From Escherichia phage vB_EcoM-G28: a stretch of DNA of 64,000 nt. The position numbers and the translations under genes are program-made. This document shows positions 1,808 to 40,607 of this stretch, piece by piece (position 1 is the stretch's first letter; every line of letters begins with the position of its first letter). The DNA is taken from sequence record NC_054916.1; one strand, written 5' to 3'. The notes under the pieces were generated by a model that did no database searches, was not told the origin of the DNA, and worked only from the letters and a program-made list of their open reading frames with translations.

Positions 1808-2086
1808 TCAAAATGTAATTTCTAACCAATCACCATCACGCTGGTCACTATTGACTTTAAAGCTAAATCCTTCTTTTCTCAGCCAATCACCAATTTCTTC
1901 AGTAATCAATTTATCGCGAGCAGTGCAATAATAACTAAAATATGTTTTACCTTGTTCAGCTGCTTTATTAGCAAGTTCCGAAAAATCTTTAATAAAACAC
2001 TCTAGTTTAAACTGTTTACTTTTAAGTGCTTTTTCACGTAATTGATTAGCAAAAGATTCATTTTCATAAAGATCATACTGTTCCAT
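1808..2086 (-). CDS. Hypothetical protein (24.2 position)
   Basis: 92 aa ORF, compact arrangement, synteny with T4 24.2. Confidence 0.55.
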   Translation of the reverse strand: MEQYDLYENESFANQLREKALKSKQFKLECFIKDFSELANKAAEQGKTYFSYYCTARDKLITEEIGDWLRKEGFSFKVNSDQRDGDWLEITF

Positions 2087-2288
2087 TTTTCACCTTTTTA
2101 TTAATATGTCTTTTTCTATAGACAACTTTTTCTCGAGTCTCAAATTTATTTTTAGCAGTCATAGCTCGAGCCCATAATACAGCCACTTCTTTTGCCTGTA
2201 AGTTCAATTCACGAGCAATTTCAATGAATGACTTTCCAGACTCATGAAGAGTAAACACCACAACCTCAGTTCTCATAATCAATCTCAT
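2073..2288 (-). CDS. Hypothetical protein (24.3 position)
   Basis: 71 aa ORF overlapping upstream gene end, synteny. Confidence 0.5.
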   Translation of the reverse strand: MRLIMRTEVVVFTLHESGKSFIEIARELNLQAKEVAVLWARAMTAKNKFETREKVVYRKRHINKKVKNGTV

Positions 2289-2344
2289 GTTATCGAGTTG
2301 GTGCCATTATATACATCATTTTCTGATTGTGTTTTGTGTGCTTT

Positions 2345-2371
2345 CAAAATGAAGAAAGGGGCCGAAGCCCC
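2345..2371 (-). terminator. GGGGCCGAAGCCCC hairpin plus U-run downstream of hoc
   Basis: Hairpin 2358-2371 with 4-nt loop; T-rich tract follows on minus strand. Confidence 0.55.
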
Positions 2372-2376
2372 TAAGA

Positions 2377-3795
2377 TTATGGATAGGTATAGATGATACC
2401 AGTTTCTAAAGCAGTTTTATGAATGATGTATCCATTACGCGATTCTTGAACATCAACTTCCGGATAGTCTTTCATCATCTTCTGAAGGGTGTAACGATGC
2501 AGGTAATATTTACTATCTGGATCGTCAGTTTTCCAATCTTTACCTTCTTCAGTCATTTTTTGGATTTCATCCATAACCCACCAACCGCACCAGATGTAAG
2601 CTGAAGTACGGTGTGGAAGAGGATGAACATAAGGCAATTCACCTTCTGGTTCCGGAGCAACTTTATCAGTCACTTGAACTTGACCTGTTGTTTTAACTGT
2701 TTTGCTATCATAATCAGTTGCTGCAACGACAGCAGTAACTTCAATAGTTTGACTTCCAACAGATGAGGTATCGACAGTATATACGTTAGTTGACCCTTCT
2801 ACAGGAGAAGAATCTTTCTTCCACGAGTAAGTAATTTGTGCTTCTTCTGGAGCATCCGTAACATTAGCAGTAAATGTAGCCGAAGCATCTTGCTGAACGT
2901 TAATAGAAGGAGGAGTCAATGTAACCTGTGGATTCATTGTCTTCTTATTAACTGTCAATGATACTTCATTAGAAGTAACTTCCTTTTCATTGTAATTTTC
3001 TGCTGTTACTTGGGCTACGCATTTAATTCTTTTTACTCCACTTGTAGTTGGAGTATAGCTAAATGTAGAGCTAGTTTCTCCACCAACTTGTGAATCATCT
3101 ACATACCACTGATACGTAGCAGATGCTCCATCAGGTTGAGAAGCTAAGGCAGCAGTAAATTGAACTGGGGTTCCAATTACTCCAGCTGAAGGACTAGCAG
3201 GAGTTACTGCCAATGTAGTTGTCTGTGTCTTTTTATTAACAGTCAGTGATACTTCATTAGAAGTAACGGTTTTTTCATCATAATTTGTCGCGGTTACTTG
3301 AGCTACACACTTGATTTTTTTAACTCCGCTTGCGGCAGGAGTGTAATTGAATGTAGCAGAAGTCGCTTCGTCTACAGGAGAACTGTCAACGTACCATTGA
3401 TACGTAGCAGATGCACCTGATGGCTGCGAAGCTAAAGCAGCGGTAAATTTAACAGCTGTTCCAATTACTCCTGCTGGAGGACTATTGGGAGTTACGGCTA
3501 AGGTAGTCGTCTGAGTTTTGTTTTTGACTGTGATAGTTGTAGTAGCTTCTGCTGTTTCAGCATCAGTATCTGGAACTGTGTTTGTTGCAACTACTTTAAT
3601 AGTCTTTTGACCGGCAGGTCCTTTTAGTACATAACTAAAAGTTGCTTCAGCTCCATCCTGTGGAACATCGTCTACAGTCCAAGCATAGGTAATAGTTCCA
3701 CCTCCAGTTTCACCACTGGGTGTAGCAGTAAACTGCTGAGTCTGATCTATAACTCCAGTAGGTGTTTTAGGAGTTATATCAACTGTAAAAGCCAT
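2377..3795 (-). CDS. hoc: Highly immunogenic outer capsid protein Hoc, 472 aa with four Ig-like domains
   Basis: Repeated ~96-aa Ig-like modules, conserved C-terminal capsid-binding region (WCGWWVMDEIQK...), synteny. Confidence 0.9.
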   Translation of the reverse strand: MAFTVDITPKTPTGVIDQTQQFTATPSGETGGGTITYAWTVDDVPQDGAEATFSYVLKGPAGQKTIKVVATNTVPDTDAETAEATTTITVKNKTQTTTLAVTPNSPPAGVIGTAVKFTAALASQPSGASATYQWYVDSSPVDEATSATFNYTPAASGVKKIKCVAQVTATNYDEKTVTSNEVSLTVNKKTQTTTLAVTPASPSAGVIGTPVQFTAALASQPDGASATYQWYVDDSQVGGETSSTFSYTPTTSGVKRIKCVAQVTAENYNEKEVTSNEVSLTVNKKTMNPQVTLTPPSINVQQDASATFTANVTDAPEEAQITYSWKKDSSPVEGSTNVYTVDTSSVGSQTIEVTAVVAATDYDSKTVKTTGQVQVTDKVAPEPEGELPYVHPLPHRTSAYIWCGWWVMDEIQKMTEEGKDWKTDDPDSKYYLHRYTLQKMMKDYPEVDVQESRNGYIIHKTALETGIIYTYP

Positions 3796-3804
3796 AAGTT
3801 ATCC

Positions 3805-4485
3805 TTATTTTAATGTTACGAAAGAAGAATTGCGTGTTTCACGAATTAAAACTGATCCGTCGCGATTAATGTAATAAATTAAGCTAAACAAAGTTTGGTG
3901 TGCTGACGCGTGTTCAAAACTAGTTGGATGAGATTTCCAATCAGGAGTTTCAGCGATCCATTGATAAATCCACCAAGGAACCGTACAGAATCCTGGATTT
4001 TTCCCCAATAATTGAAGATTCGGACTAAAGTTTTCCGGAAGAGTAAATACAGACGGCTTTTCAGATTCAATAATCTCAGCTACAGCTTGTTCAAACTTTT
4101 CTTCAACAAAAGGAGTGTCTTCAATCAAAACATCGGTATTTTCAGGAATTTTATCCGTTTCGACTACTTCAATTTTAATATCAGATTTAACCGGAGAATC
4201 AATCAGAAGTGCTGCTTCTGGATTAACTTCTTCATCGTCATATTTTAATCCCTCTGCAGCATCAGCAGCATTGATTAAGTCTTTAATAGATAACCCATCA
4301 GTCTCTGGCATAGGTTCACTAGCGAGCTTCTGGAGGGCTTCTTCAATATCAACAACGATATTATCAAAAGATTTATTCTTTTTGACCTTTATACCAAACT
4401 GTTCAGCGTATTCAGCTAATTTAGCTTTAGCTTCTTTATTATCATCAAGAGCCTTCAACTCTGCAATATAATCTTTATCTATCAT
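3805..4485 (-). CDS. inh: Inhibitor of prohead protease (Inh)
   Basis: 226 aa acidic protein at the T4 inh position between hoc and segE. Confidence 0.7.
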   Translation of the reverse strand: MIDKDYIAELKALDDNKEAKAKLAEYAEQFGIKVKKNKSFDNIVVDIEEALQKLASEPMPETDGLSIKDLINAADAAEGLKYDDEEVNPEAALLIDSPVKSDIKIEVVETDKIPENTDVLIEDTPFVEEKFEQAVAEIIESEKPSVFTLPENFSPNLQLLGKNPGFCTVPWWIYQWIAETPDWKSHPTSFEHASAHQTLFSLIYYINRDGSVLIRETRNSSFVTLK

Positions 4486-4498
4486 AATATTTCCTCAG

Positions 4499-4506
4499 TA
4501 TAAATA
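4499..4506 (+). promoter_or_regulatory. T4 late promoter element TATAAATA upstream of segE
   Basis: Exact TATAAATA about 29 nt upstream of the segE ATG. Confidence 0.45.
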
Positions 4507-4534
4507 TAGATATATTTATTACTCGGAAAATAGT

Positions 4535-5152
4535 ATGTACCACTTTGTATATGAAACAACAAATCTAATAAATGGTAAAAAGTATATAGGAAAACACTCT
4601 ACTGATGACTTGAATGATGGTTACCTTGGTTCCGGTAAGGCAATTCAGCAGGCTATAAAGAAATATGGTGAAAACAATTTTTCTAGAACAATACTAAAAG
4701 AGTTTAAAACTTCCGAAGAAGCGTACATGTATGAAGAAGAAATTATAACTCCTGAAATAATAAAAAGCAAAAATTATTATAATATGAAACCTGGTGGAAT
4801 TGGTGGAATTGTTATGACTACAGAGGTTATAGCAAAGATGAAAGAATCTTCCGCTAAGAGATTTGAAAACTCACCGGGCACGGTATTAGGTACAACTTGT
4901 TACACTAATGGAACTAAAAATATTTTTATTAAACCTGGAGAACTTGTTCCAGAAGGATTTGTAAAAGGGATGGTTCATCCTAATAGAAAGTCCAGAAAAG
5001 GATGTAAAGTCAAACCGACTACCACAGGAACTTTTTGGGTCAATAATGGTGCAATAAATAAATTAATACAACCAGACGGTATTATTCCCGACGGATTTAT
5101 TAAAGGTCGTCTCATGAAAAGAGATTCTAAAGGCAAATTTAGTAAGGCATAA
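4535..5152 (+). CDS. segE: GIY-YIG homing endonuclease SegE
   Basis: 205 aa; N-terminal GIY-YIG-type motif HFVYETTNLINGKKYIGK; position between inh and uvsW. Confidence 0.8.
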   Translation: MYHFVYETTNLINGKKYIGKHSTDDLNDGYLGSGKAIQQAIKKYGENNFSRTILKEFKTSEEAYMYEEEIITPEIIKSKNYYNMKPGGIGGIVMTTEVIAKMKESSAKRFENSPGTVLGTTCYTNGTKNIFIKPGELVPEGFVKGMVHPNRKSRKGCKVKPTTTGTFWVNNGAINKLIQPDGIIPDGFIKGRLMKRDSKGKFSKA

Positions 5153-5154
5153 TT

Positions 5155-6663
5155 ATGGATATTAAAGTACATTTTCACGACTTCAGTCATGTACGCATCG
5201 ATTGTGAAGAGAGCACGTTCCACGAATTAAGAGATTTCTTTTCGTTTGAGGCCGATGGATATAGATTTAACCCTCGCTTCAGATATGGCAACTGGGATGG
5301 ACGAATCCGTCTTTTAGATTATAATCGTCTTCTTCCATTCGGCTTAGTCGGGCAAATTAAAAAGTTCTGTGATAACTTTGGCTATAAAGCCTGGATTGAC
5401 CCACAAATTAACGAAAAAGAAGAATTATCAAGAAAAGATTTTGATGAATGGCTTTCTAAATTAGAAATCTATTCAGGAAATAAAAGAATTGAACCACACT
5501 GGTATCAAAAAGATGCAGTGTTCGAAGGATTAGTTAATCGTCGTAGAATTCTTAATCTTCCAACATCTGCAGGTAAATCTTTAATTCAGGCTCTGCTTGC
5601 GCGATATTATTTGGAAAATTATGAAGGTAAAATTCTTATCATTGTTCCAACAACTGCTCTGACAACTCAGATGGCTGATGACTTTGTTGATTATCGTTTA
5701 TTCAGTCACGCAATGATAAAGAAAATTGGTGGCGGAGCATCAAAAGATGATAAATATAAAAATGATGCACCAGTCGTTGTTGGTACATGGCAAACTGTAG
5801 TAAAACAACCAAAAGAATGGTTCTCACAGTTTGGAATGATGATGAATGATGAATGCCATCTTGCTACAGGAAAAAGTATTTCATCTATCATATCAGGTTT
5901 AAATAACTGCATGTTCAAATTTGGTCTATCTGGTTCATTACGTGACGGCAAAGCCAATATCATGCAGTATGTTGGAATGTTTGGCGAAATATTTAAGCCA
6001 GTAACGACTTCTAAGTTAATGGAAGATGGGCAAGTAACTGAGCTAAAAATTAATAGTATTTTTCTTCGTTATCCTGATGAGTTCACTACTAAATTAAAGG
6101 GAAAAACTTACCAAGAAGAAATAAAAATTATTACTGGGCTCAGTAAAAGAAATAAATGGATAGCTAAATTAGCTATTAAGCTTGCGCAAAAAGATGAAAA
6201 CGCTTTTGTCATGTTTAAACATGTATCACATGGTAAAGCTATTTTCGATTTAATTAAAAATGAATACGATAAAGTTTATTACGTATCAGGGGAAGTTGAT
6301 ACCGAAACCCGCAATATAATGAAAACCTTAGCTGAAAATGGCAAAGGAATAATTATAGTAGCTAGTTATGGTGTATTTTCTACTGGTATTTCAGTTAAAA
6401 ATCTGCATCACGTTGTTTTAGCGCACGGTGTTAAATCAAAAATCATTGTATTACAAACAATCGGTCGTGTATTACGTAAGCATGGTTCTAAGACAATAGC
6501 AACAGTCTGGGATCTTATAGATGACGCGGGCGTAGTTTCTAAATCAAAAACATCTTCTAAAAAATACTCGCATTTAAACTATCTTTTAAAACATGGACTT
6601 GATCGTATTCAGCGTTATGCTGATGAAAAGTTTAATTATGTGATGAAAGAGGTTAAACTTTGA
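5155..6663 (+). CDS. uvsW: UvsW DNA/RNA helicase
   Basis: 502 aa; SF2 helicase motifs (PTSAGKS Walker A, DECH box); synteny. Confidence 0.92.
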   Translation: MDIKVHFHDFSHVRIDCEESTFHELRDFFSFEADGYRFNPRFRYGNWDGRIRLLDYNRLLPFGLVGQIKKFCDNFGYKAWIDPQINEKEELSRKDFDEWLSKLEIYSGNKRIEPHWYQKDAVFEGLVNRRRILNLPTSAGKSLIQALLARYYLENYEGKILIIVPTTALTTQMADDFVDYRLFSHAMIKKIGGGASKDDKYKNDAPVVVGTWQTVVKQPKEWFSQFGMMMNDECHLATGKSISSIISGLNNCMFKFGLSGSLRDGKANIMQYVGMFGEIFKPVTTSKLMEDGQVTELKINSIFLRYPDEFTTKLKGKTYQEEIKIITGLSKRNKWIAKLAIKLAQKDENAFVMFKHVSHGKAIFDLIKNEYDKVYYVSGEVDTETRNIMKTLAENGKGIIIVASYGVFSTGISVKNLHHVVLAHGVKSKIIVLQTIGRVLRKHGSKTIATVWDLIDDAGVVSKSKTSSKKYSHLNYLLKHGLDRIQRYADEKFNYVMKEVKL

Positions 6664-31221: not shown

Positions 31222-31718
31222 AAAGTTTTAATAACCTCTATAATATCGTCTTGAGAAAGACCGTTAATTAAAATATGATGTTCAGCTGGAGATTTAGAAA
31301 TTTTAAAGCATGCCTCAACATCTTCTGCCATATCCGATGCACTACGATTTGGATTACTAATTCCAAGACGATGTTTTCCCGTCAAAGGATTAACGATGAT
31401 GTAGCATTTACAGCTATTAATGTGAACATTAGGTTGAGTCTGATTAATGAACACATCACAATCATATTTCGCAAGCTGATTTTCTAAAAAGACTTTCATC
31501 TCCTCAACCGCATCAGGAAGCATATCACGGGCTTGCTCAAGACGACGATTTCGATATTCTTTGATGGTCGTTTTCCGCTTAACTTGCTTAGCTAAATCTT
31601 TCTTAAGATCGGTGATATATCCAACTCGACGATTTCCTTTGAATACAGAAATCCCATCTGTAGTATCACCGTATGCTTCAACGACCATCTCAGTAGTAAT
31701 AAGCTGCAAATCCATCAT
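31212..31718 (-). CDS. alc: Alc (allows late transcription on cytosine DNA / host transcription terminator)
   Basis: 168 aa; synteny between pseT region and rnlA. Confidence 0.8.
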   Translation of the reverse strand: MMDLQLITTEMVVEAYGDTTDGISVFKGNRRVGYITDLKKDLAKQVKRKTTIKEYRNRRLEQARDMLPDAVEEMKVFLENQLAKYDCDVFINQTQPNVHINSCKCYIIVNPLTGKHRLGISNPNRSASDMAEDVEACFKISKSPAEHHILINGLSQDDIIEVIKTLCM

Positions 31719-31746
31719 AAAGTCCTCATGTTATGTCAGTAAGATT

Positions 31747-31776
31747 ATTATAACACAACACGAGGGACTTGTAAAC
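31747..31776 (-). promoter_or_regulatory. Early promoter upstream of alc (-35 GTTTACA, -10 TGTTATAAT)
   Basis: 54-bp sequence identical to the promoter at 16208-16261. Confidence 0.55.
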
Positions 31777-31779
31777 AGC

Positions 31780-33718
<1,939 letters not shown>

Positions 33719-33740
33719 AATAAAATGGGCCTTGCGGCCC
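33719..33740 (-). terminator. GGGCC-GCAA-GGCCC hairpin plus U-run between nrdB and denA
   Basis: Hairpin 33727-33740 followed on minus strand by AUUUUAUU directly before the denA ATG. Confidence 0.55.
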
Positions 33741-33747
33741 ACACTCC

Positions 33748-34926
33748 TTAAAAATATTTTTTAAAACTCATCATAACTTTATCATCAACATCATTATCAA
33801 TCTGTGCAACAAGGTAAGATGACAGTTCTACTTCTTGTGGCGCGGATTGAACATTATCAGAATTAAGATATTCACGAATCCAAGGATATGGATGTTTAAC
33901 CGGAGCATCGGTAATTGGGCATGGAAGACCGCACTGTTTCATACGAGATACAGTTAAGTAATCAATAAAGCTCCACATGCTATTTGTATTTAATCCAGGA
34001 ACATCGCCATCTTTAAATAAATGAACTGCCCAATCTTTTTCTTGGCGGTTAACTTCCATGAAAATATCAACTGCTTCTTGTTCACACTCTTGAGCAATTT
34101 TAACCCATTCATCGCCATCAGTACCGGATTGAAGTTGACGAATAATATATTGGGTGCCTTTAAGGTGAAGCTGCTCATCACGTGCAATGAACTTCATAAT
34201 CTTGGCATTACCTTCCATGATTTCCATGTTCTTATGGAAGTTAAAGGTACATGCAAAAGATACATAAAAACGAATAGCTTCTAAGGCATTAATAACGTGC
34301 AAACAGAGGTAAAGAGATTTCATTAGTGCTCGTTTAGCTTCGGCTTCTTGTTTAATAGCTCGATTTAAACGAAAAACAGCATCAGGAGATTCTTTAGCTA
34401 GTTCTGTAAATTCTTTAGCGTTTTCCCATTCACGGGTTTTAGTCAGAACATCATCATAATAACGTCCAATTGATTCAGCACGTTTCATGATAGCTTCATC
34501 TAATACAATCTCATCAAATACCTTTGACGGATCAGTATAAAGATTTCGCATGATATGTGTATATGAACGACTATGAATAGTTTCACTAAAAGTCCATGTA
34601 GCAACCCATGTATCAAGACTTGGGTCTGAAATTAATGACATAAGTACAGCAGATGGCGCACGACCCTGAATGCTATCTAGAAGTGATTGATACTTCAGAT
34701 TATTAGTAAAAATATCTTGCTGATATTGAGGAAGCTTGTTAAATTGTGCAGCATCCATCATTAAGTTTACTTCTTCAGGACGCCAGAAAAATGACAACTG
34801 CTTTTCGGTTAAATCTTCAAAAACTTTATGACGTTGAATATCATAACGCGCAATACCAAGACCTGAACCGAAGAACATAGGTTCTTTTAAAACATCAACT
34901 GGATTTGTATTAAAAACTGTAGACAT
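33748..34926 (-). CDS. nrdB: Ribonucleotide reductase small subunit, uninterrupted
   Basis: 392 aa from MSTVFNT; AGAGGA SD; diiron-centre motifs; no intron. Confidence 0.92.
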   Translation of the reverse strand: MSTVFNTNPVDVLKEPMFFGSGLGIARYDIQRHKVFEDLTEKQLSFFWRPEEVNLMMDAAQFNKLPQYQQDIFTNNLKYQSLLDSIQGRAPSAVLMSLISDPSLDTWVATWTFSETIHSRSYTHIMRNLYTDPSKVFDEIVLDEAIMKRAESIGRYYDDVLTKTREWENAKEFTELAKESPDAVFRLNRAIKQEAEAKRALMKSLYLCLHVINALEAIRFYVSFACTFNFHKNMEIMEGNAKIMKFIARDEQLHLKGTQYIIRQLQSGTDGDEWVKIAQECEQEAVDIFMEVNRQEKDWAVHLFKDGDVPGLNTNSMWSFIDYLTVSRMKQCGLPCPITDAPVKHPYPWIREYLNSDNVQSAPQEVELSSYLVAQIDNDVDDKVMMSFKKYF

Positions 34927-35657
34927 TAATTTTTCCTCTTTAAAATTCTGCCGCGTTTCCAACCTGGCGGTATAATATCATCTTTACCTATAAGCGTGCA
35001 TTCACTTCCATTATTAATCCATTTCTTACCGCGGATTCCTTTATAATCTCTTGGTTGTATTTTGTCAAACTTTGCATCAAGTTGATATGCCCAACGAAAT
35101 CCATAGGCATATTGAAATTTACCCTCAGCACAATATTTGATATTTGACCCGTTTCCATTAACTGATCTGGACGCTGCCGCAATAGAGTGAAAGGTTTCTA
35201 TGAAATCCCCATCTAATGAGAATTTATGTATTTCGATAGATGGGCATGCATACCTATTCACGTTTGATACATGTTGTTTAGTTTCGTTTTTATGATGCTT
35301 GCCTAACATTCCTCTAGGATGAGGATTATTTTTCCAATATTTCTTAAAGAAATCAGAATTAGCTTTAGCAAATAATTTTCTGTGCAAGCTATACAATCTG
35401 TTATTAATTCTATTACCAGCTTTATCTGTTGCCATTAACGTTAACGCAGAGGCAAGACCAAAATGGCCTTCATTTATCTTGCATAGTAATAGATGCGCTA
35501 TAAAATGTTCTCTAGCTGTTAATTCAACTAAATTTTCTTTATCATCAGAACCTCCCATGCATTTAGGGACTATATGATGTGTCTCTTTATATTCGGATAA
35601 AGGTTCCCGAGCCTGAGCTCGGGAAATTAGATCATTATAGATTTTTTGATAATTCAT
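34926..35657 (-). CDS. mobE: Free-standing HNH homing endonuclease between nrdA and nrdB (mobE-like)
   Basis: 243 aa; HNH motif HHIVPKCMGG...NLVELTAREHFIAH; stop overlaps nrdB start (TAATG). Confidence 0.75.
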   Translation of the reverse strand: MNYQKIYNDLISRAQAREPLSEYKETHHIVPKCMGGSDDKENLVELTAREHFIAHLLLCKINEGHFGLASALTLMATDKAGNRINNRLYSLHRKLFAKANSDFFKKYWKNNPHPRGMLGKHHKNETKQHVSNVNRYACPSIEIHKFSLDGDFIETFHSIAAASRSVNGNGSNIKYCAEGKFQYAYGFRWAYQLDAKFDKIQPRDYKGIRGKKWINNGSECTLIGKDDIIPPGWKRGRILKRKN

Positions 35658-37921
35658 TACAATTTACACGCTGCACAATCGTCGGCTTTAGGAGTTTCTA
35701 TTTCATAATCATCAGTACCAGAACCATCACGGGTATTATGATAATAGAAATTTTTAATGCCATAATACCATCCGTATAGCATGTCATCAATCATTACAGA
35801 CATTGGAACCTTTCCTTTTGGAAAAATCTGCGGGTCATAATATGTATTCGCTGAAGCTGATTGACATACCCATTTCAGCATAATAGCTACCTGCGTAAGA
35901 TAAGGTTTATTACCTTTCTTAGCTAATTTCCATGTATAATCATAGAGGTCTATGTTATGCTCAATATTGGGCACGACTTGATTAAAGGAGCCCTCTTTTG
36001 ATTCTTTAACACTTACCGGTCCACGTGGAGGCTCGATACCGTTTGTACTGTTAGAAACTTGGGAAGATGACTCACATGGCATAAGTGCTGATAATGTGCT
36101 ATTACGGATGCCAAAGAGCTTAAGGTCTTCCCGCAGCGACGACCAGTCACAAACGTATTTTGGAGCTGCGATTTGGTCAATCTTTTTATTGTACCAGTCG
36201 ATAGGTAATTCGCCTCGAGACCAACGAGTGTCTGAATAATATTCGCAAGGTCCTTTTTCTTTGGCGAGCTTAATGGATGCTTTAATGAGTCCATACTGTA
36301 ATCTCTCAAATAGTTCATGTGTTAAATCGTTAGCATCTTCATAAGAAGCAAAGTTACTTGCCAGCCAAGCTGCATAGTTGGTAACACCTACACCGAGGTT
36401 ACGACGCTTTTTAGCTTTTTCTGCTTCAGGAACTGGATATCCTTGGTAATCCAAAAGATTATCAAGAGCACGAACTTGAACTTCTGCCAATTCATTAATT
36501 TTATCTTGGTCTTGCCAATCGAAGTTATCCAACACAAATGCAGATAACGTGCACAATCCAATTTCAGCATCAGGACTATTCACATCATTTGTTGGAATAG
36601 CAATTTCACAACACAGGTTACTCTGACGAATCGGTGCCTTTTCACGAATAAATGGAGTATAGTTATTCGTATTATCAATGAACTGTACATAAATCCTTGC
36701 TGTTCCTGATCGTTCAGTCATGAGCAATTCAAATAGTTCACGGGCTTTAATACGCTTTTTGCGAATATTAGGGTCTTTTTCTGCTGCTTCGTATAATTCG
36801 CGGAAACGGTCTTGGTCTTTAAAATAAGAATAATAAAGCTCGCCACCCATTTCATGCGGACTGAACAAAGTAATGTAGTCGTTCTTTCCAAAACGTTCCA
36901 TCATCAAATCATTCAGCTGGACGCCATAATCCATATGACGGATACGGTTTTCTTCTACACCTTTGTTATTTTTCAAAACGAGAAGATTTTCAACTTCCAA
37001 ATGCCAAATGGGATAATAAGCAGTAGCAGCGCCGCCACGAATTCCGCCCTGTGAACATGATTTAACAGCAGTCTGAAAATGTTTCCAAAAAGGAATAACA
37101 CCAGTATGGCGTACTTCACCCATGCCAATCTTAGAACCTTCGGCACGAATCATACCAACGTTAATACCAATTCCAGCGCGTTTAGAGATATATTCAACGA
37201 TTGAAGCGGAAGCCTTATTGATAGACTTCAGCGAATCACCTGCCTCAATAACAACACATGAACTAAACTGTCGAGTCGGAGTACGGCAACCAGCCATAAT
37301 AGGAGTTGGCAATGAAATCTGTCGAGTAGATACTGCTTCATAAAAACGGATAACATGTTTTAATCTATCAACAGGTTCATCTTGATGTAATGCCATTCCA
37401 ATAGTCATAAATGCAAACTGTGGAGTTTCATAAATTTGACCAGTGGTTTTATCTTTAACTAGATATTTTTCTTTTAATTGCATCGCCCCGGAATAAGTAA
37501 ATTCCATATCCCGCTCGTGCTTAATTTTTGATTCTAAAAATGTAATTTCTTCTGCTGAATATTTTGACAATAATTCAGGGTCATATTTACCTTCATTTAC
37601 ACAGTAAGAAATATGGTCAATAAATGAACGTGGTTCATACTGCCCATAAACATGCTTACGAAGAGCAAACATTAAACAGCGTGCAGCTACATATTGATAA
37701 TCAGGCTCTTCAACCGAAATAGAATTCGCAGCGGCCTTAATGACAATAGTCTGAATATCATCAGTTGTCATTCCATCACGGAGATATGATTTAATATTTT
37801 CATATAATTCATAAGGATTTACAGATGTTCCTTCAGCTGCCCAAGATAAAACTTTAATAATTTTTTGTGGATCAAAGCTCTGAGAAACGCCACTACTTTT
37901 GATAACATTAATTAATTGCAT
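35657..37921 (-). CDS. nrdA: Ribonucleotide reductase large subunit
   Basis: 754 aa; ATP-cone N-terminus, active-site NLCCEI motif. Confidence 0.95.
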   Translation of the reverse strand: MQLINVIKSSGVSQSFDPQKIIKVLSWAAEGTSVNPYELYENIKSYLRDGMTTDDIQTIVIKAAANSISVEEPDYQYVAARCLMFALRKHVYGQYEPRSFIDHISYCVNEGKYDPELLSKYSAEEITFLESKIKHERDMEFTYSGAMQLKEKYLVKDKTTGQIYETPQFAFMTIGMALHQDEPVDRLKHVIRFYEAVSTRQISLPTPIMAGCRTPTRQFSSCVVIEAGDSLKSINKASASIVEYISKRAGIGINVGMIRAEGSKIGMGEVRHTGVIPFWKHFQTAVKSCSQGGIRGGAATAYYPIWHLEVENLLVLKNNKGVEENRIRHMDYGVQLNDLMMERFGKNDYITLFSPHEMGGELYYSYFKDQDRFRELYEAAEKDPNIRKKRIKARELFELLMTERSGTARIYVQFIDNTNNYTPFIREKAPIRQSNLCCEIAIPTNDVNSPDAEIGLCTLSAFVLDNFDWQDQDKINELAEVQVRALDNLLDYQGYPVPEAEKAKKRRNLGVGVTNYAAWLASNFASYEDANDLTHELFERLQYGLIKASIKLAKEKGPCEYYSDTRWSRGELPIDWYNKKIDQIAAPKYVCDWSSLREDLKLFGIRNSTLSALMPCESSSQVSNSTNGIEPPRGPVSVKESKEGSFNQVVPNIEHNIDLYDYTWKLAKKGNKPYLTQVAIMLKWVCQSASANTYYDPQIFPKGKVPMSVMIDDMLYGWYYGIKNFYYHNTRDGSGTDDYEIETPKADDCAACKL

Positions 37922-38238
37922 AAGTCCTCAACTTGAAAATCGTCTTTAAACAATCGGTTAACTATATGAGCTATTATATCACCATGACACGGCTTTGGTT
38001 TACATGTGCATCCTAGCCTCATTCCACGTAAAGGCTCTAAATGTGCTTTAGTTATTTCTCCGGATTTAATTCGACGTATAAAATCTTTTTTGAATAATTC
38101 AATGGCAGCCTCCCGGCTGCCAGCATCTTTACCGACGTAATTTCCCCAAAATGTACCGCGGTGAATATTAACATCAAAGTCGGATTTATATTTATTCACT
38201 ACCCGGCATAGACGGCCCGCGCGGTGATAATTCAGCAT
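37912..38238 (-). CDS. Hypothetical protein (nrdA.1 position)
   Basis: 108 aa ORF. Confidence 0.55.
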
Positions 38239-38467
38239 ATTGTTTTTCCGTCAAAACAGTAATATCGTAGTAACAGTCAGAAGAAGTTTTAACTGTGGAA
38301 ATTTTATTATCAAAATACTCACGGGTCATTTTATGAGTATAATATTTTTTACCATAAATGATAATAGGCTGATTTGGTCCTGGAACTTCTAACTCGCTTG
38401 GGTTAGGAAGTGTAAAAAGAACGGCACCAGAAGTATCTTTAAATCGTAAAATCATATATCCTCGCAA
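38192..38467 (-). CDS. Hypothetical protein (nrdA.2 position)
   Basis: 91 aa ORF. Confidence 0.5.
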
Positions 38468-38478
38468 TTAAATTAAAA

Positions 38479-38790
38479 TTATACCGCCATTTTTCCTTTC
38501 AAGACACCGTGGGATTGATAATCTTTGAGAACGAAATCTTTAGGTCTAAGTTTAAGAACATATTTTAATTGTTCTTTAGTAGAAAGATATCGGAATTTAT
38601 AAGGTAGACCACTTATTACCAGCTCACAAAGCTCTTTAGGTTCACGCCTCAAAATTTCTTTACATTGTTCTACGTGATTCATATAGATATGAGTATTACC
38701 ACCAGAAAATATCAAATCTCCTGGAATAAGATTACACATCTTAGCTACAATATGAACTAACGTAGCATATGATGCAATATTAAACGGTAG
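38479..38790 (-). CDS. td: Thymidylate synthase, exon 2 (103 codons)
   Basis: Continues TS sequence after splice junction ...FLG|LPFNIASYAT; exon 1 plus exon 2 give 286 aa. Confidence 0.9.
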   Translation of the reverse strand, partial: LPFNIASYATLVHIVAKMCNLIPGDLIFSGGNTHIYMNHVEQCKEILRREPKELCELVISGLPYKFRYLSTKEQLKYVLKLRPKDFVLKDYQSHGVLKGKMAV

Positions 38791-39235
38791 CATTATGTTC
38801 AGATAAGGTCGTTAATCTTACCCCGGAATTATATCCAGCTGCATGTCACCATGCAGATCAGACTATATCTCCAACTTGTTAAAGCAAGTTGTCTATCGTT
38901 TCGAGTCACTTGACCCTACTCCCCAAAGGGATAGTCGTTAGGCATTTATGTAGAACCAATTCCATTTATCAGATTTTACACGATAAGTAACTAATCCAGA
39001 CGAAATTTTAAAATGCCTTTTCCATCTCTTTTCAAAATCTTTAGCACTTCCTACATATACTTTATTGTTTAAAGTATTTTTAATCTGATAAATTCCGCTT
39101 TTCATAAATACCTCTTTAAATATAGAAGTATTATTAAAGGGCAGTCCTACAATTTAGCACGGGATTGTCTACTAGAGAGGTTCCCCGTTTAGATAGATTA
39201 CAAGTATAAGTCACCTTATACTCAGGCCTCAATTA
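38791..39235 (-). ncRNA. Group I self-splicing intron in td (445 nt), with internally deleted homing-endonuclease ORF
   Basis: Begins UAAUUGAGGCCUGAGUAUAAGGUG and ends ...GAACAUAAUG as in the T4 td intron; interrupts an otherwise continuous TS reading frame. Confidence 0.85.
38938..39105 (-). pseudogene. I-TevI remnant: 55-codon ORF fusing the GIY-YIG N-terminus to the C-terminal tail
   Basis: MKSGIYQIKNTLNNKVYVGSAKDFEKRWKRHFK joined directly to ISSGLVTYRVKSDKWNWFYINA; too short for a functional GIY-YIG enzyme. Confidence 0.75.

Positions 39236-40607
<1,372 letters not shown>

Follow-up and report, generated by a model that had tools for sequence, protein, structure and literature searches.

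The window, by which we mean the whole 64,000-nucleotide stretch of Escherichia phage vB_EcoM-G28 (NC_054916.1) that was analysed, comes from a T4-like coliphage (Tequatrovirus). On its minus strand the genes run in the order td (split by an intron), nrdA.2, nrdA.1, nrdA, an HNH gene of 243 codons, nrdB, denA and rnlA. The window is approximately 96–97% identical to T6, RB3 and many field isolates, with a 4.7-kb query from denA to nrdA aligning colinearly to many phages at this identity. No record identical to the window was found among the database matches. At both junctions of the HNH gene, with nrdA on one side and nrdB on the other, the sequence TAATG overlaps a stop and a start codon by a single nucleotide. 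The features of the locus are collected in Table 1.

Table 1. Genes and sequence features of the nrd region, in window coordinates.
Feature	Position	Strand	Description and basis
nrdA	35657–37921	-	Class Ia ribonucleotide reductase large subunit; open reading frame, colinear RB3 and SF2-1 annotation, haplotype comparison
RB3-type mobE	34926–35657	-	Free-standing HNH homing endonuclease gene, 243 codons
HNH nuclease module	35478–35657	-	Approximately residues 1–60 of MobE; nearly identical to T4T MobE by BLASTP
mobE-internal hairpin	35604–35625	-	9-bp stem and 4-nt loop, followed by CCUUUAUC
NUMOD1 motif	35127–35219	-	Residues 147–177 of MobE, in the C-terminal, presumed DNA-binding part; Pfam, 25.9 bits against a cut-off of 22.8
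mobE 3' end	34934–34998	-	Contains the nrdB Shine-Dalgarno sequence AGAGGA at 34934–34939
nrdB	33748–34926	-	Class Ia ribonucleotide reductase small subunit, uninterrupted
T4 MobE nick region	34796–34813	-	nrdB nt 114–131; the nicks at nt 122–126 correspond to 34801–34805
Hypervariable nrdB segment	34327–34422	-	Approximately residues 170–205; opposite a gap in E. coli R2
Empty intron site and flanks	34211–34290	-	Insertion point between 34251 and 34250; alignment with the spliced T4 junction
Terminator-like hairpin	33725–33742	-	Directly after the nrdB stop, before denA
denA	33308–33718	-	Pfam GIY-YIG match and RB3 annotation

The nrdB frame runs from an ATG at 34926 to a stop codon at 33748–33750 and comprises 1179 nt (392 codons) with no internal stops. 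The list of open reading frames gives a TTG 12 codons upstream of this ATG; the annotations of RB3 and SF2-1 start at the ATG. The predicted protein aligned with E. coli R2 in one stretch (residues 3–388 against 3–373, E = 3e-127), and the equivalents of D84, E115, H118, Y122, E204, E238 and H241 are kept, conservation covering the di-iron ligands, the radical tyrosine and the W48 motif (FFWRPEE). The Pfam family Ribonuc_red_sm also matched in a single stretch, covering residues 33–335 at 128.5 bits against a cut-off of 33.6.

The original prediction described nrdB as a continuous 392-codon frame lacking an intron, recalling that the T4 gene is split by an intron carrying I-TevIII. The reference T4 record does carry both, and the absence of the intron from the window was borne out by the reading frame together with alignments to T4 and RB3. 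In these alignments nrdB differs by one clean gap after nt 676, of 598 nt relative to T4 and 1091 nt relative to RB3, which falls inside the Cys226 codon (T/GT). It is conceivable in principle that a cryptic intervening sequence still lies within nrdB and that the continuous frame is misleading. A default Rfam scan of the whole window returned zero matches at the gathering threshold; this null result proves nothing alone because the real intron in td was missed too. We therefore replaced it with a permissive scan of positions 33000–40000 (E <= 1) and with direct alignment to intron-containing alleles. The permissive scan recovered the td intron alone and found no group I intron in nrdB. The length of 1179 nt equals that of the annotated intron-less nrdB genes of T2 and SF2-1, and the sole length difference in the end-to-end alignment with E. 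coli R2 is the short E. coli gap opposite the hypervariable segment. A hidden intron was thus rejected as excluded by the alignments to T4, RB3 and E. coli R2, and its probability is negligible. The hypervariable segment, which lies 80–170 nt upstream of the intron site, is an observation in its own right: at least five mutually unrelated alleles of differing length occur there among phages that are 95–100% identical elsewhere in nrdB.

Alignment with the T4 exons, which the original prediction had envisaged as a means of locating the insertion site, showed that 79 of the 80 nt listed in Table 1 match the spliced T4 exon junction. The lone mismatch is at exon position -2, where the window has A instead of G, so that the codon before the site reads GCA rather than GCG. 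GCA is shared with T2; GCG occurs in all three of the intron-containing alleles examined and in one of 30 intron-less alleles. I-TevIII cuts 14 and 16 bp upstream of where the intron inserts (Robbins et al., 2007, PMC1865063). We infer that the exon G at -2 would be needed for pairing with the intron guide (exon GCGU to intron GCGC), and that this G would be brought in together with the intron because the stretch from the cut (-14/-16) to the insertion site is always co-converted. The target of the nrdB group I intron and I-TevIII of T4 and RB3 (Eddy and Gold, 1991; PMC1865063) is accordingly present in the window, but the intron and its open reading frame are absent. By these comparisons, the empty site is a nearly perfect I-TevIII homing site bearing the base typical of intron-less alleles, and it should be open to invasion from an RB3-like phage.

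The base at -2 makes it most likely that the site would either never have been invaded or have been restored by recombination with an intron-less phage. An intron could alternatively have been present formerly and been precisely lost, as the end of a homing cycle of invasion, endonuclease decay and loss. In keeping with such a history, the exon haplotype from 60 nt upstream to 40 nt downstream of the site is that of the intron-containing T4 and RB3 except for one base, T2 and T6 differing from it at several positions, and decayed introns do exist in the lineage, since T4 and a further comparison locus (L037, described below) have deletion versions of 592–598 nt. Precise excision would however leave G at -2, the base of all three intron-containing alleles, and the window has A, as in intron-less T2. 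Homing of the intron into a window-like haplotype, as the origin of RB3-like alleles, would moreover also be expected to produce the shared flanks. We consider precise loss unlikely. In a variant that competes with the simplest reading, namely that RB3-like alleles would have arisen by homing into an allele like that of the window, the intron would have been lost first, with a G-to-A change or patch repair from an intron-less phage as the next step. A site never invaded, or restored by recombination, is the history that we prefer.

Upstream of nrdB, the HNH gene is intact, as the original prediction had stated, with a full 243 codons and a stop codon that overlaps the nrdB start. It matched PHROG 655, annotated as "homing endonuclease" (E = 1e-57). 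It is the same gene as RB3 mobE (GenBank AY262130.2 and KM606994, where the note reads "nrdB.2"), with the same place, length and TAATG junctions; 723 of 732 nt (98.8%) are identical and the proteins differ by one amino acid. Colinear nrd blocks with RB3-type mobE also occur in SF2-1, P922, SP1, ph0021, KMB39, ESh29 and others. Nucleotide identity of the gene to the window is 95.6–99.5% in RB3 and these colinear phages, most of which have an intron-less nrdB. In RB3 and its close siblings, unlike in the window, nrdB holds the complete 1091-nt intron, within which I-TevIII is intact.

The description of this gene as "mobE-like" held for its N-terminal HNH module, which is shared with T4 MobE, and did not hold for its C-terminal domain, which is unrelated to that of T4 and is that of the RB3 allele. 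In a BLASTP comparison with T4T MobE, similarity beyond residue 60 was weak to about residue 105 and absent thereafter, and nucleotide homology with T4 mobE extends over the first ~165 nt only. Given this limited homology, we rejected orthology between the HNH gene and T4 mobE. The Pfam HNH profile scored 19.3 bits on the window MobE, below the cut-off of 21.4, and 24.6 bits on T4T MobE; the HNH region of T4 MobE is required for nicking (Wilson and Edgell, 2009, PMC2790892). T4 and the window agree in the placement of the gene between nrdA and nrdB, in the terminator hairpin, in the UAAUGA overlap with nrdA and in a linked variant of the nrdA 3' end, and the first ~60 residues of MobE are nearly identical. 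In contrast, the C-terminal ~140–180 residues of T4 MobE are unrelated, with NUMOD3 and a Cys-rich tail in place of NUMOD1, and T4 nrdB carries an intron that the window lacks. T6 resembles the window in combining mobE with an intron-less nrdB, but its mobE, 213 codons long and with NUMOD3 at the C-terminal end, represents a third allele. This allele, also carried by LZ7, has just the distal half of the T4 tail in common with T4 mobE. Pfam matched NUMOD3 in both T4T and T6 MobE, as opposed to NUMOD1 in the window. T2 has an intron-less nrdB and no mobE, nrdA and nrdB being separated by a 51-nt spacer; the same spacer is found in three other relatives that lack the gene (L006, L007 and L038). 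Judged from these alignments, the name "mobE" covers at least three alleles that have a common nuclease head and different DNA-binding tails. Sandegren et al. reportedly carried out, in 2005, the first survey of mobE in RB phages, which may already describe this allele difference.

In the reference T4 record (NC_000866; locus L003, 6717–7417), mobE (141 aa) and nrdB.1 are annotated separately, and NUMOD3-like repeats lie in three frames. Other T4 records are 99.6% identical to the T4 mobE segment, the match being 532 nt long instead of 534; in T4T (locus L040, 234–932) MobE is a single open reading frame of 232 codons. The mobE/nrdB.1 split in the reference is probably a legacy sequencing error. 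The notion that T4 mobE is a pseudogene was dropped, given that the other T4 records are 2 nt shorter and that T4T has one uninterrupted frame.

Putative expression signals like those of T4 mobE are present in the window. The hairpin inside mobE (fold energy -17.1 kcal/mol, z = -3.0) is identical in sequence and position to that of T4, where it was mapped as a weak intrinsic terminator (PMC2790892), and the combination of hairpin and TAATG overlaps is likewise that of T4 mobE (PMC2790892; PMC2988022). The nrdB middle promoter lies inside T4 mobE (PMC2790892). By analogy, the segment CACGCTTAT ... TATTAT at 34972–34998 is tentatively put forward as a weak candidate MotA-type middle promoter.

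These signals bear on whether the HNH gene might be an inactive or domesticated remnant, retained solely for the sake of nrdB expression. Wilson and Edgell argued that loss of T4 mobE by deletion is selected against on account of the nrdB promoter within it (PMC2790892), the ribosome-binding site of nrdB lies within the window mobE as well, and carriers of the RB3 allele lack a protective polymorphism where T4 MobE nicks (see below). Expression signals alone would, however, constrain just the last ~100 nt, and purifying selection extends over all 243 codons, with dN/dS of 0.07–0.10 against RB3, SF2-1 and a further comparison locus (L008). Length and sequence are conserved across genera, and the HNH residues are identical to those of the functional T4 MobE. 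We thus regard a mere remnant as improbable; RB3-type mobE looks both functional and old, to judge by its conservation. As a separate observation, an orthologue of RB3-type mobE in locus L023 (2775–3486) is interrupted after 146 codons, its C-terminal part matching as a second piece, and provides an example of this allele in decay in another genus. Another locus (L037; IMG/VR UViG_2974742932, 169650 bp; 1889–5270) has a 1.6-kb insert between nrdA and nrdB without similarity to the mobE N-terminus, together with an nrdB intron of 592 nt; this could correspond to the "hef" arrangement that has been reported in phage U5.

The original prediction also raised the question whether the mobE-like enzyme cleaves near the intron site. 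T4 MobE instead nicks T2 nrdB at nt 122–126 (PMC2790892), approximately 550 bp upstream of the empty site of the window. Wilson and Edgell proposed that polymorphisms at nrdB nt 114–131 protect mobE-carrying genomes (PMC2790892), and the nrdB genes of T4 and T6 are indeed diverged there. The nrdB of the window is identical to that of the sensitive, mobE-less T2 over nt 100–160, including AAG at codon 42, and RB3 differs from T2 by two bases in nt 114–131 and by five over nt 100–160. When four phages carrying the RB3 allele were set against four without mobE, no fixed difference between the two groups appeared in nrdB nt 7–480, and a search of the RB3-allele carriers for a protective polymorphism where T4 MobE nicks gave none. 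The only consistent differences of the carriers lie in the last ~30 nt of nrdA and in nrdB codon 2 (TCT vs. AGC). The NrdA C-terminus reads ADDCAACKL in the presence of mobE and AEDCSSCKL in its absence, and this variant tracks the presence of mobE whatever the mobE allele, which places the left boundary of the mobile cassette inside nrdA. The two forms make up the last ~8 codons of nrdA (35657–35690 in the window; T2 compared in locus L004).

With nrdB identical to that of T2 at the T4 nick site and an unrelated MobE tail, the target of the enzyme encoded in the window cannot be taken from T4. The target of RB3-type MobE probably differs from that of T4 MobE. From these comparisons we would suggest that the RB3-type enzyme either recognises a junction that is disrupted by its own insertion or tolerates self-cutting. 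Self-cutting was reportedly described for SegH and Hef by Sandegren et al. in 2005. More tentatively, and as a proposal that we hold to be possible rather than probable, RB3-type MobE may recognise a target other than nrdB nt 122–126, the likeliest candidate being the junction of nrdA end, spacer and nrdB start. If a distinct target were true, genomes like that of the window would still be attackable by T4-type MobE, and mobE alleles with different cutting sites would be rivals for a single locus.

The original prediction contrasted the window with T4. The RB3 intron sequence was present in ~129 phage records and a query of nrdB exon 1 was matched by ~646, rough counts that include duplicate RefSeq/GenBank entries and near-identical isolates; by this reckoning roughly four-fifths of the sequenced relatives would have no nrdB intron, making the intron-less gene the majority state and T4 the exception. 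Among the best 40 matches to the 4.7-kb block from denA to nrdA, 29 each aligned as one colinear piece, equal in length to the block in the window and with the same HNH gene and no intron. The C-terminal part of RB3-type mobE was found in 53 records, and this tail occurred together with the intron in only 12 records among the matches listed, namely RB3 and its near-identical siblings, vb_GEC_SH_GT, pSe_SNUABM_01 and G2540-3. Other genera (L018 and L020) likewise have full-length mobE orthologues, of 241–242 aa, with nrdA on one side and an intron-less nrdB on the other. The succession of nrdA, mobE and intron-less nrdB is thus ordinary, being common, already described and already explained in mechanism. 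Crosses of T4 and T2 yielded recombinants with mobE and without I-TevIII (Wilson and Edgell, 2009, PMC2790892), and such progeny were explained by co-conversion tracts ending between both elements (PMC2790892).

Taken together, the locus is very probably a standard Tequatrovirus nrdA-mobE-nrdB-denA block that combines the RB3 allele of mobE with an nrdB unoccupied by a group I intron. In the explanation that we propose, mobE would be a promoter-less cassette wedged between nrdA and nrdB. As in T4, it would be transcribed from the nrdA promoters, damped by the hairpin at its 5' end, and its translation would be coupled via the TAATG overlap; its 3' end would in turn provide the ribosome-binding site of nrdB. 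During mixed infection, phages without mobE would have their nrd region nicked or cut by the enzyme, and mobE would be copied into that region during repair; nicking, target and mobility of RB3-type MobE are here extrapolated from T4 MobE, whose C-terminal domain differs. The gene and the intron would behave as independent selfish elements ~0.7 kb apart, with co-conversion tracts often ending between them, so that genomes with mobE and without the intron would form readily. Among the records compared, the state with mobE and without the intron would be the commonest for the RB3-type allele.

A further selfish element of the window is the intron of td (38479–39784). Its core, at 38839–39022, scored 40.9 bits against Rfam Intron_gpI; default Rfam annotation misses the intron because this falls below the gathering score of 50. 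The original prediction of a decayed I-TevI in td was confirmed by a 570-nt deletion relative to T4 near 39016, by which most of I-TevI is lost, with an N-terminal remnant of 55 codons at 38938–39105. The window had been described as holding selfish elements at different stages of their life cycle, and this wording is fair for an intact mobE, a td intron with I-TevI mostly lost and an empty nrdB site. The arrangement is a textbook case of how free-standing endonuclease gene, intron and intron-encoded endonuclease assort separately in T-even phages. Its significance is small, and what is mildly new is limited to the way that mobE differs between alleles and to what this implies for target choice. 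The published T4 target and the idea of self-protection do not obviously apply to the RB3 allele, a caution that is useful both for annotation and for mobE as a model.

Downstream of denA, we also noted a perfect (100%) tandem duplication with a period of 351 bp at 31575–32276, the copies lying at 31575–31874 and 31926–32225. It extends from the 3' end of rnlA into the 5' end of alc. In the 12 matches listed, out of 495 that cover at least 80% of the query, the region measures 1050 bp rather than 1401 bp. The duplication appears private to this sequence and would either have arisen very recently or be an artefact of assembly. It yields extra partial open reading frames at 31780–31905 and 31878–32069.
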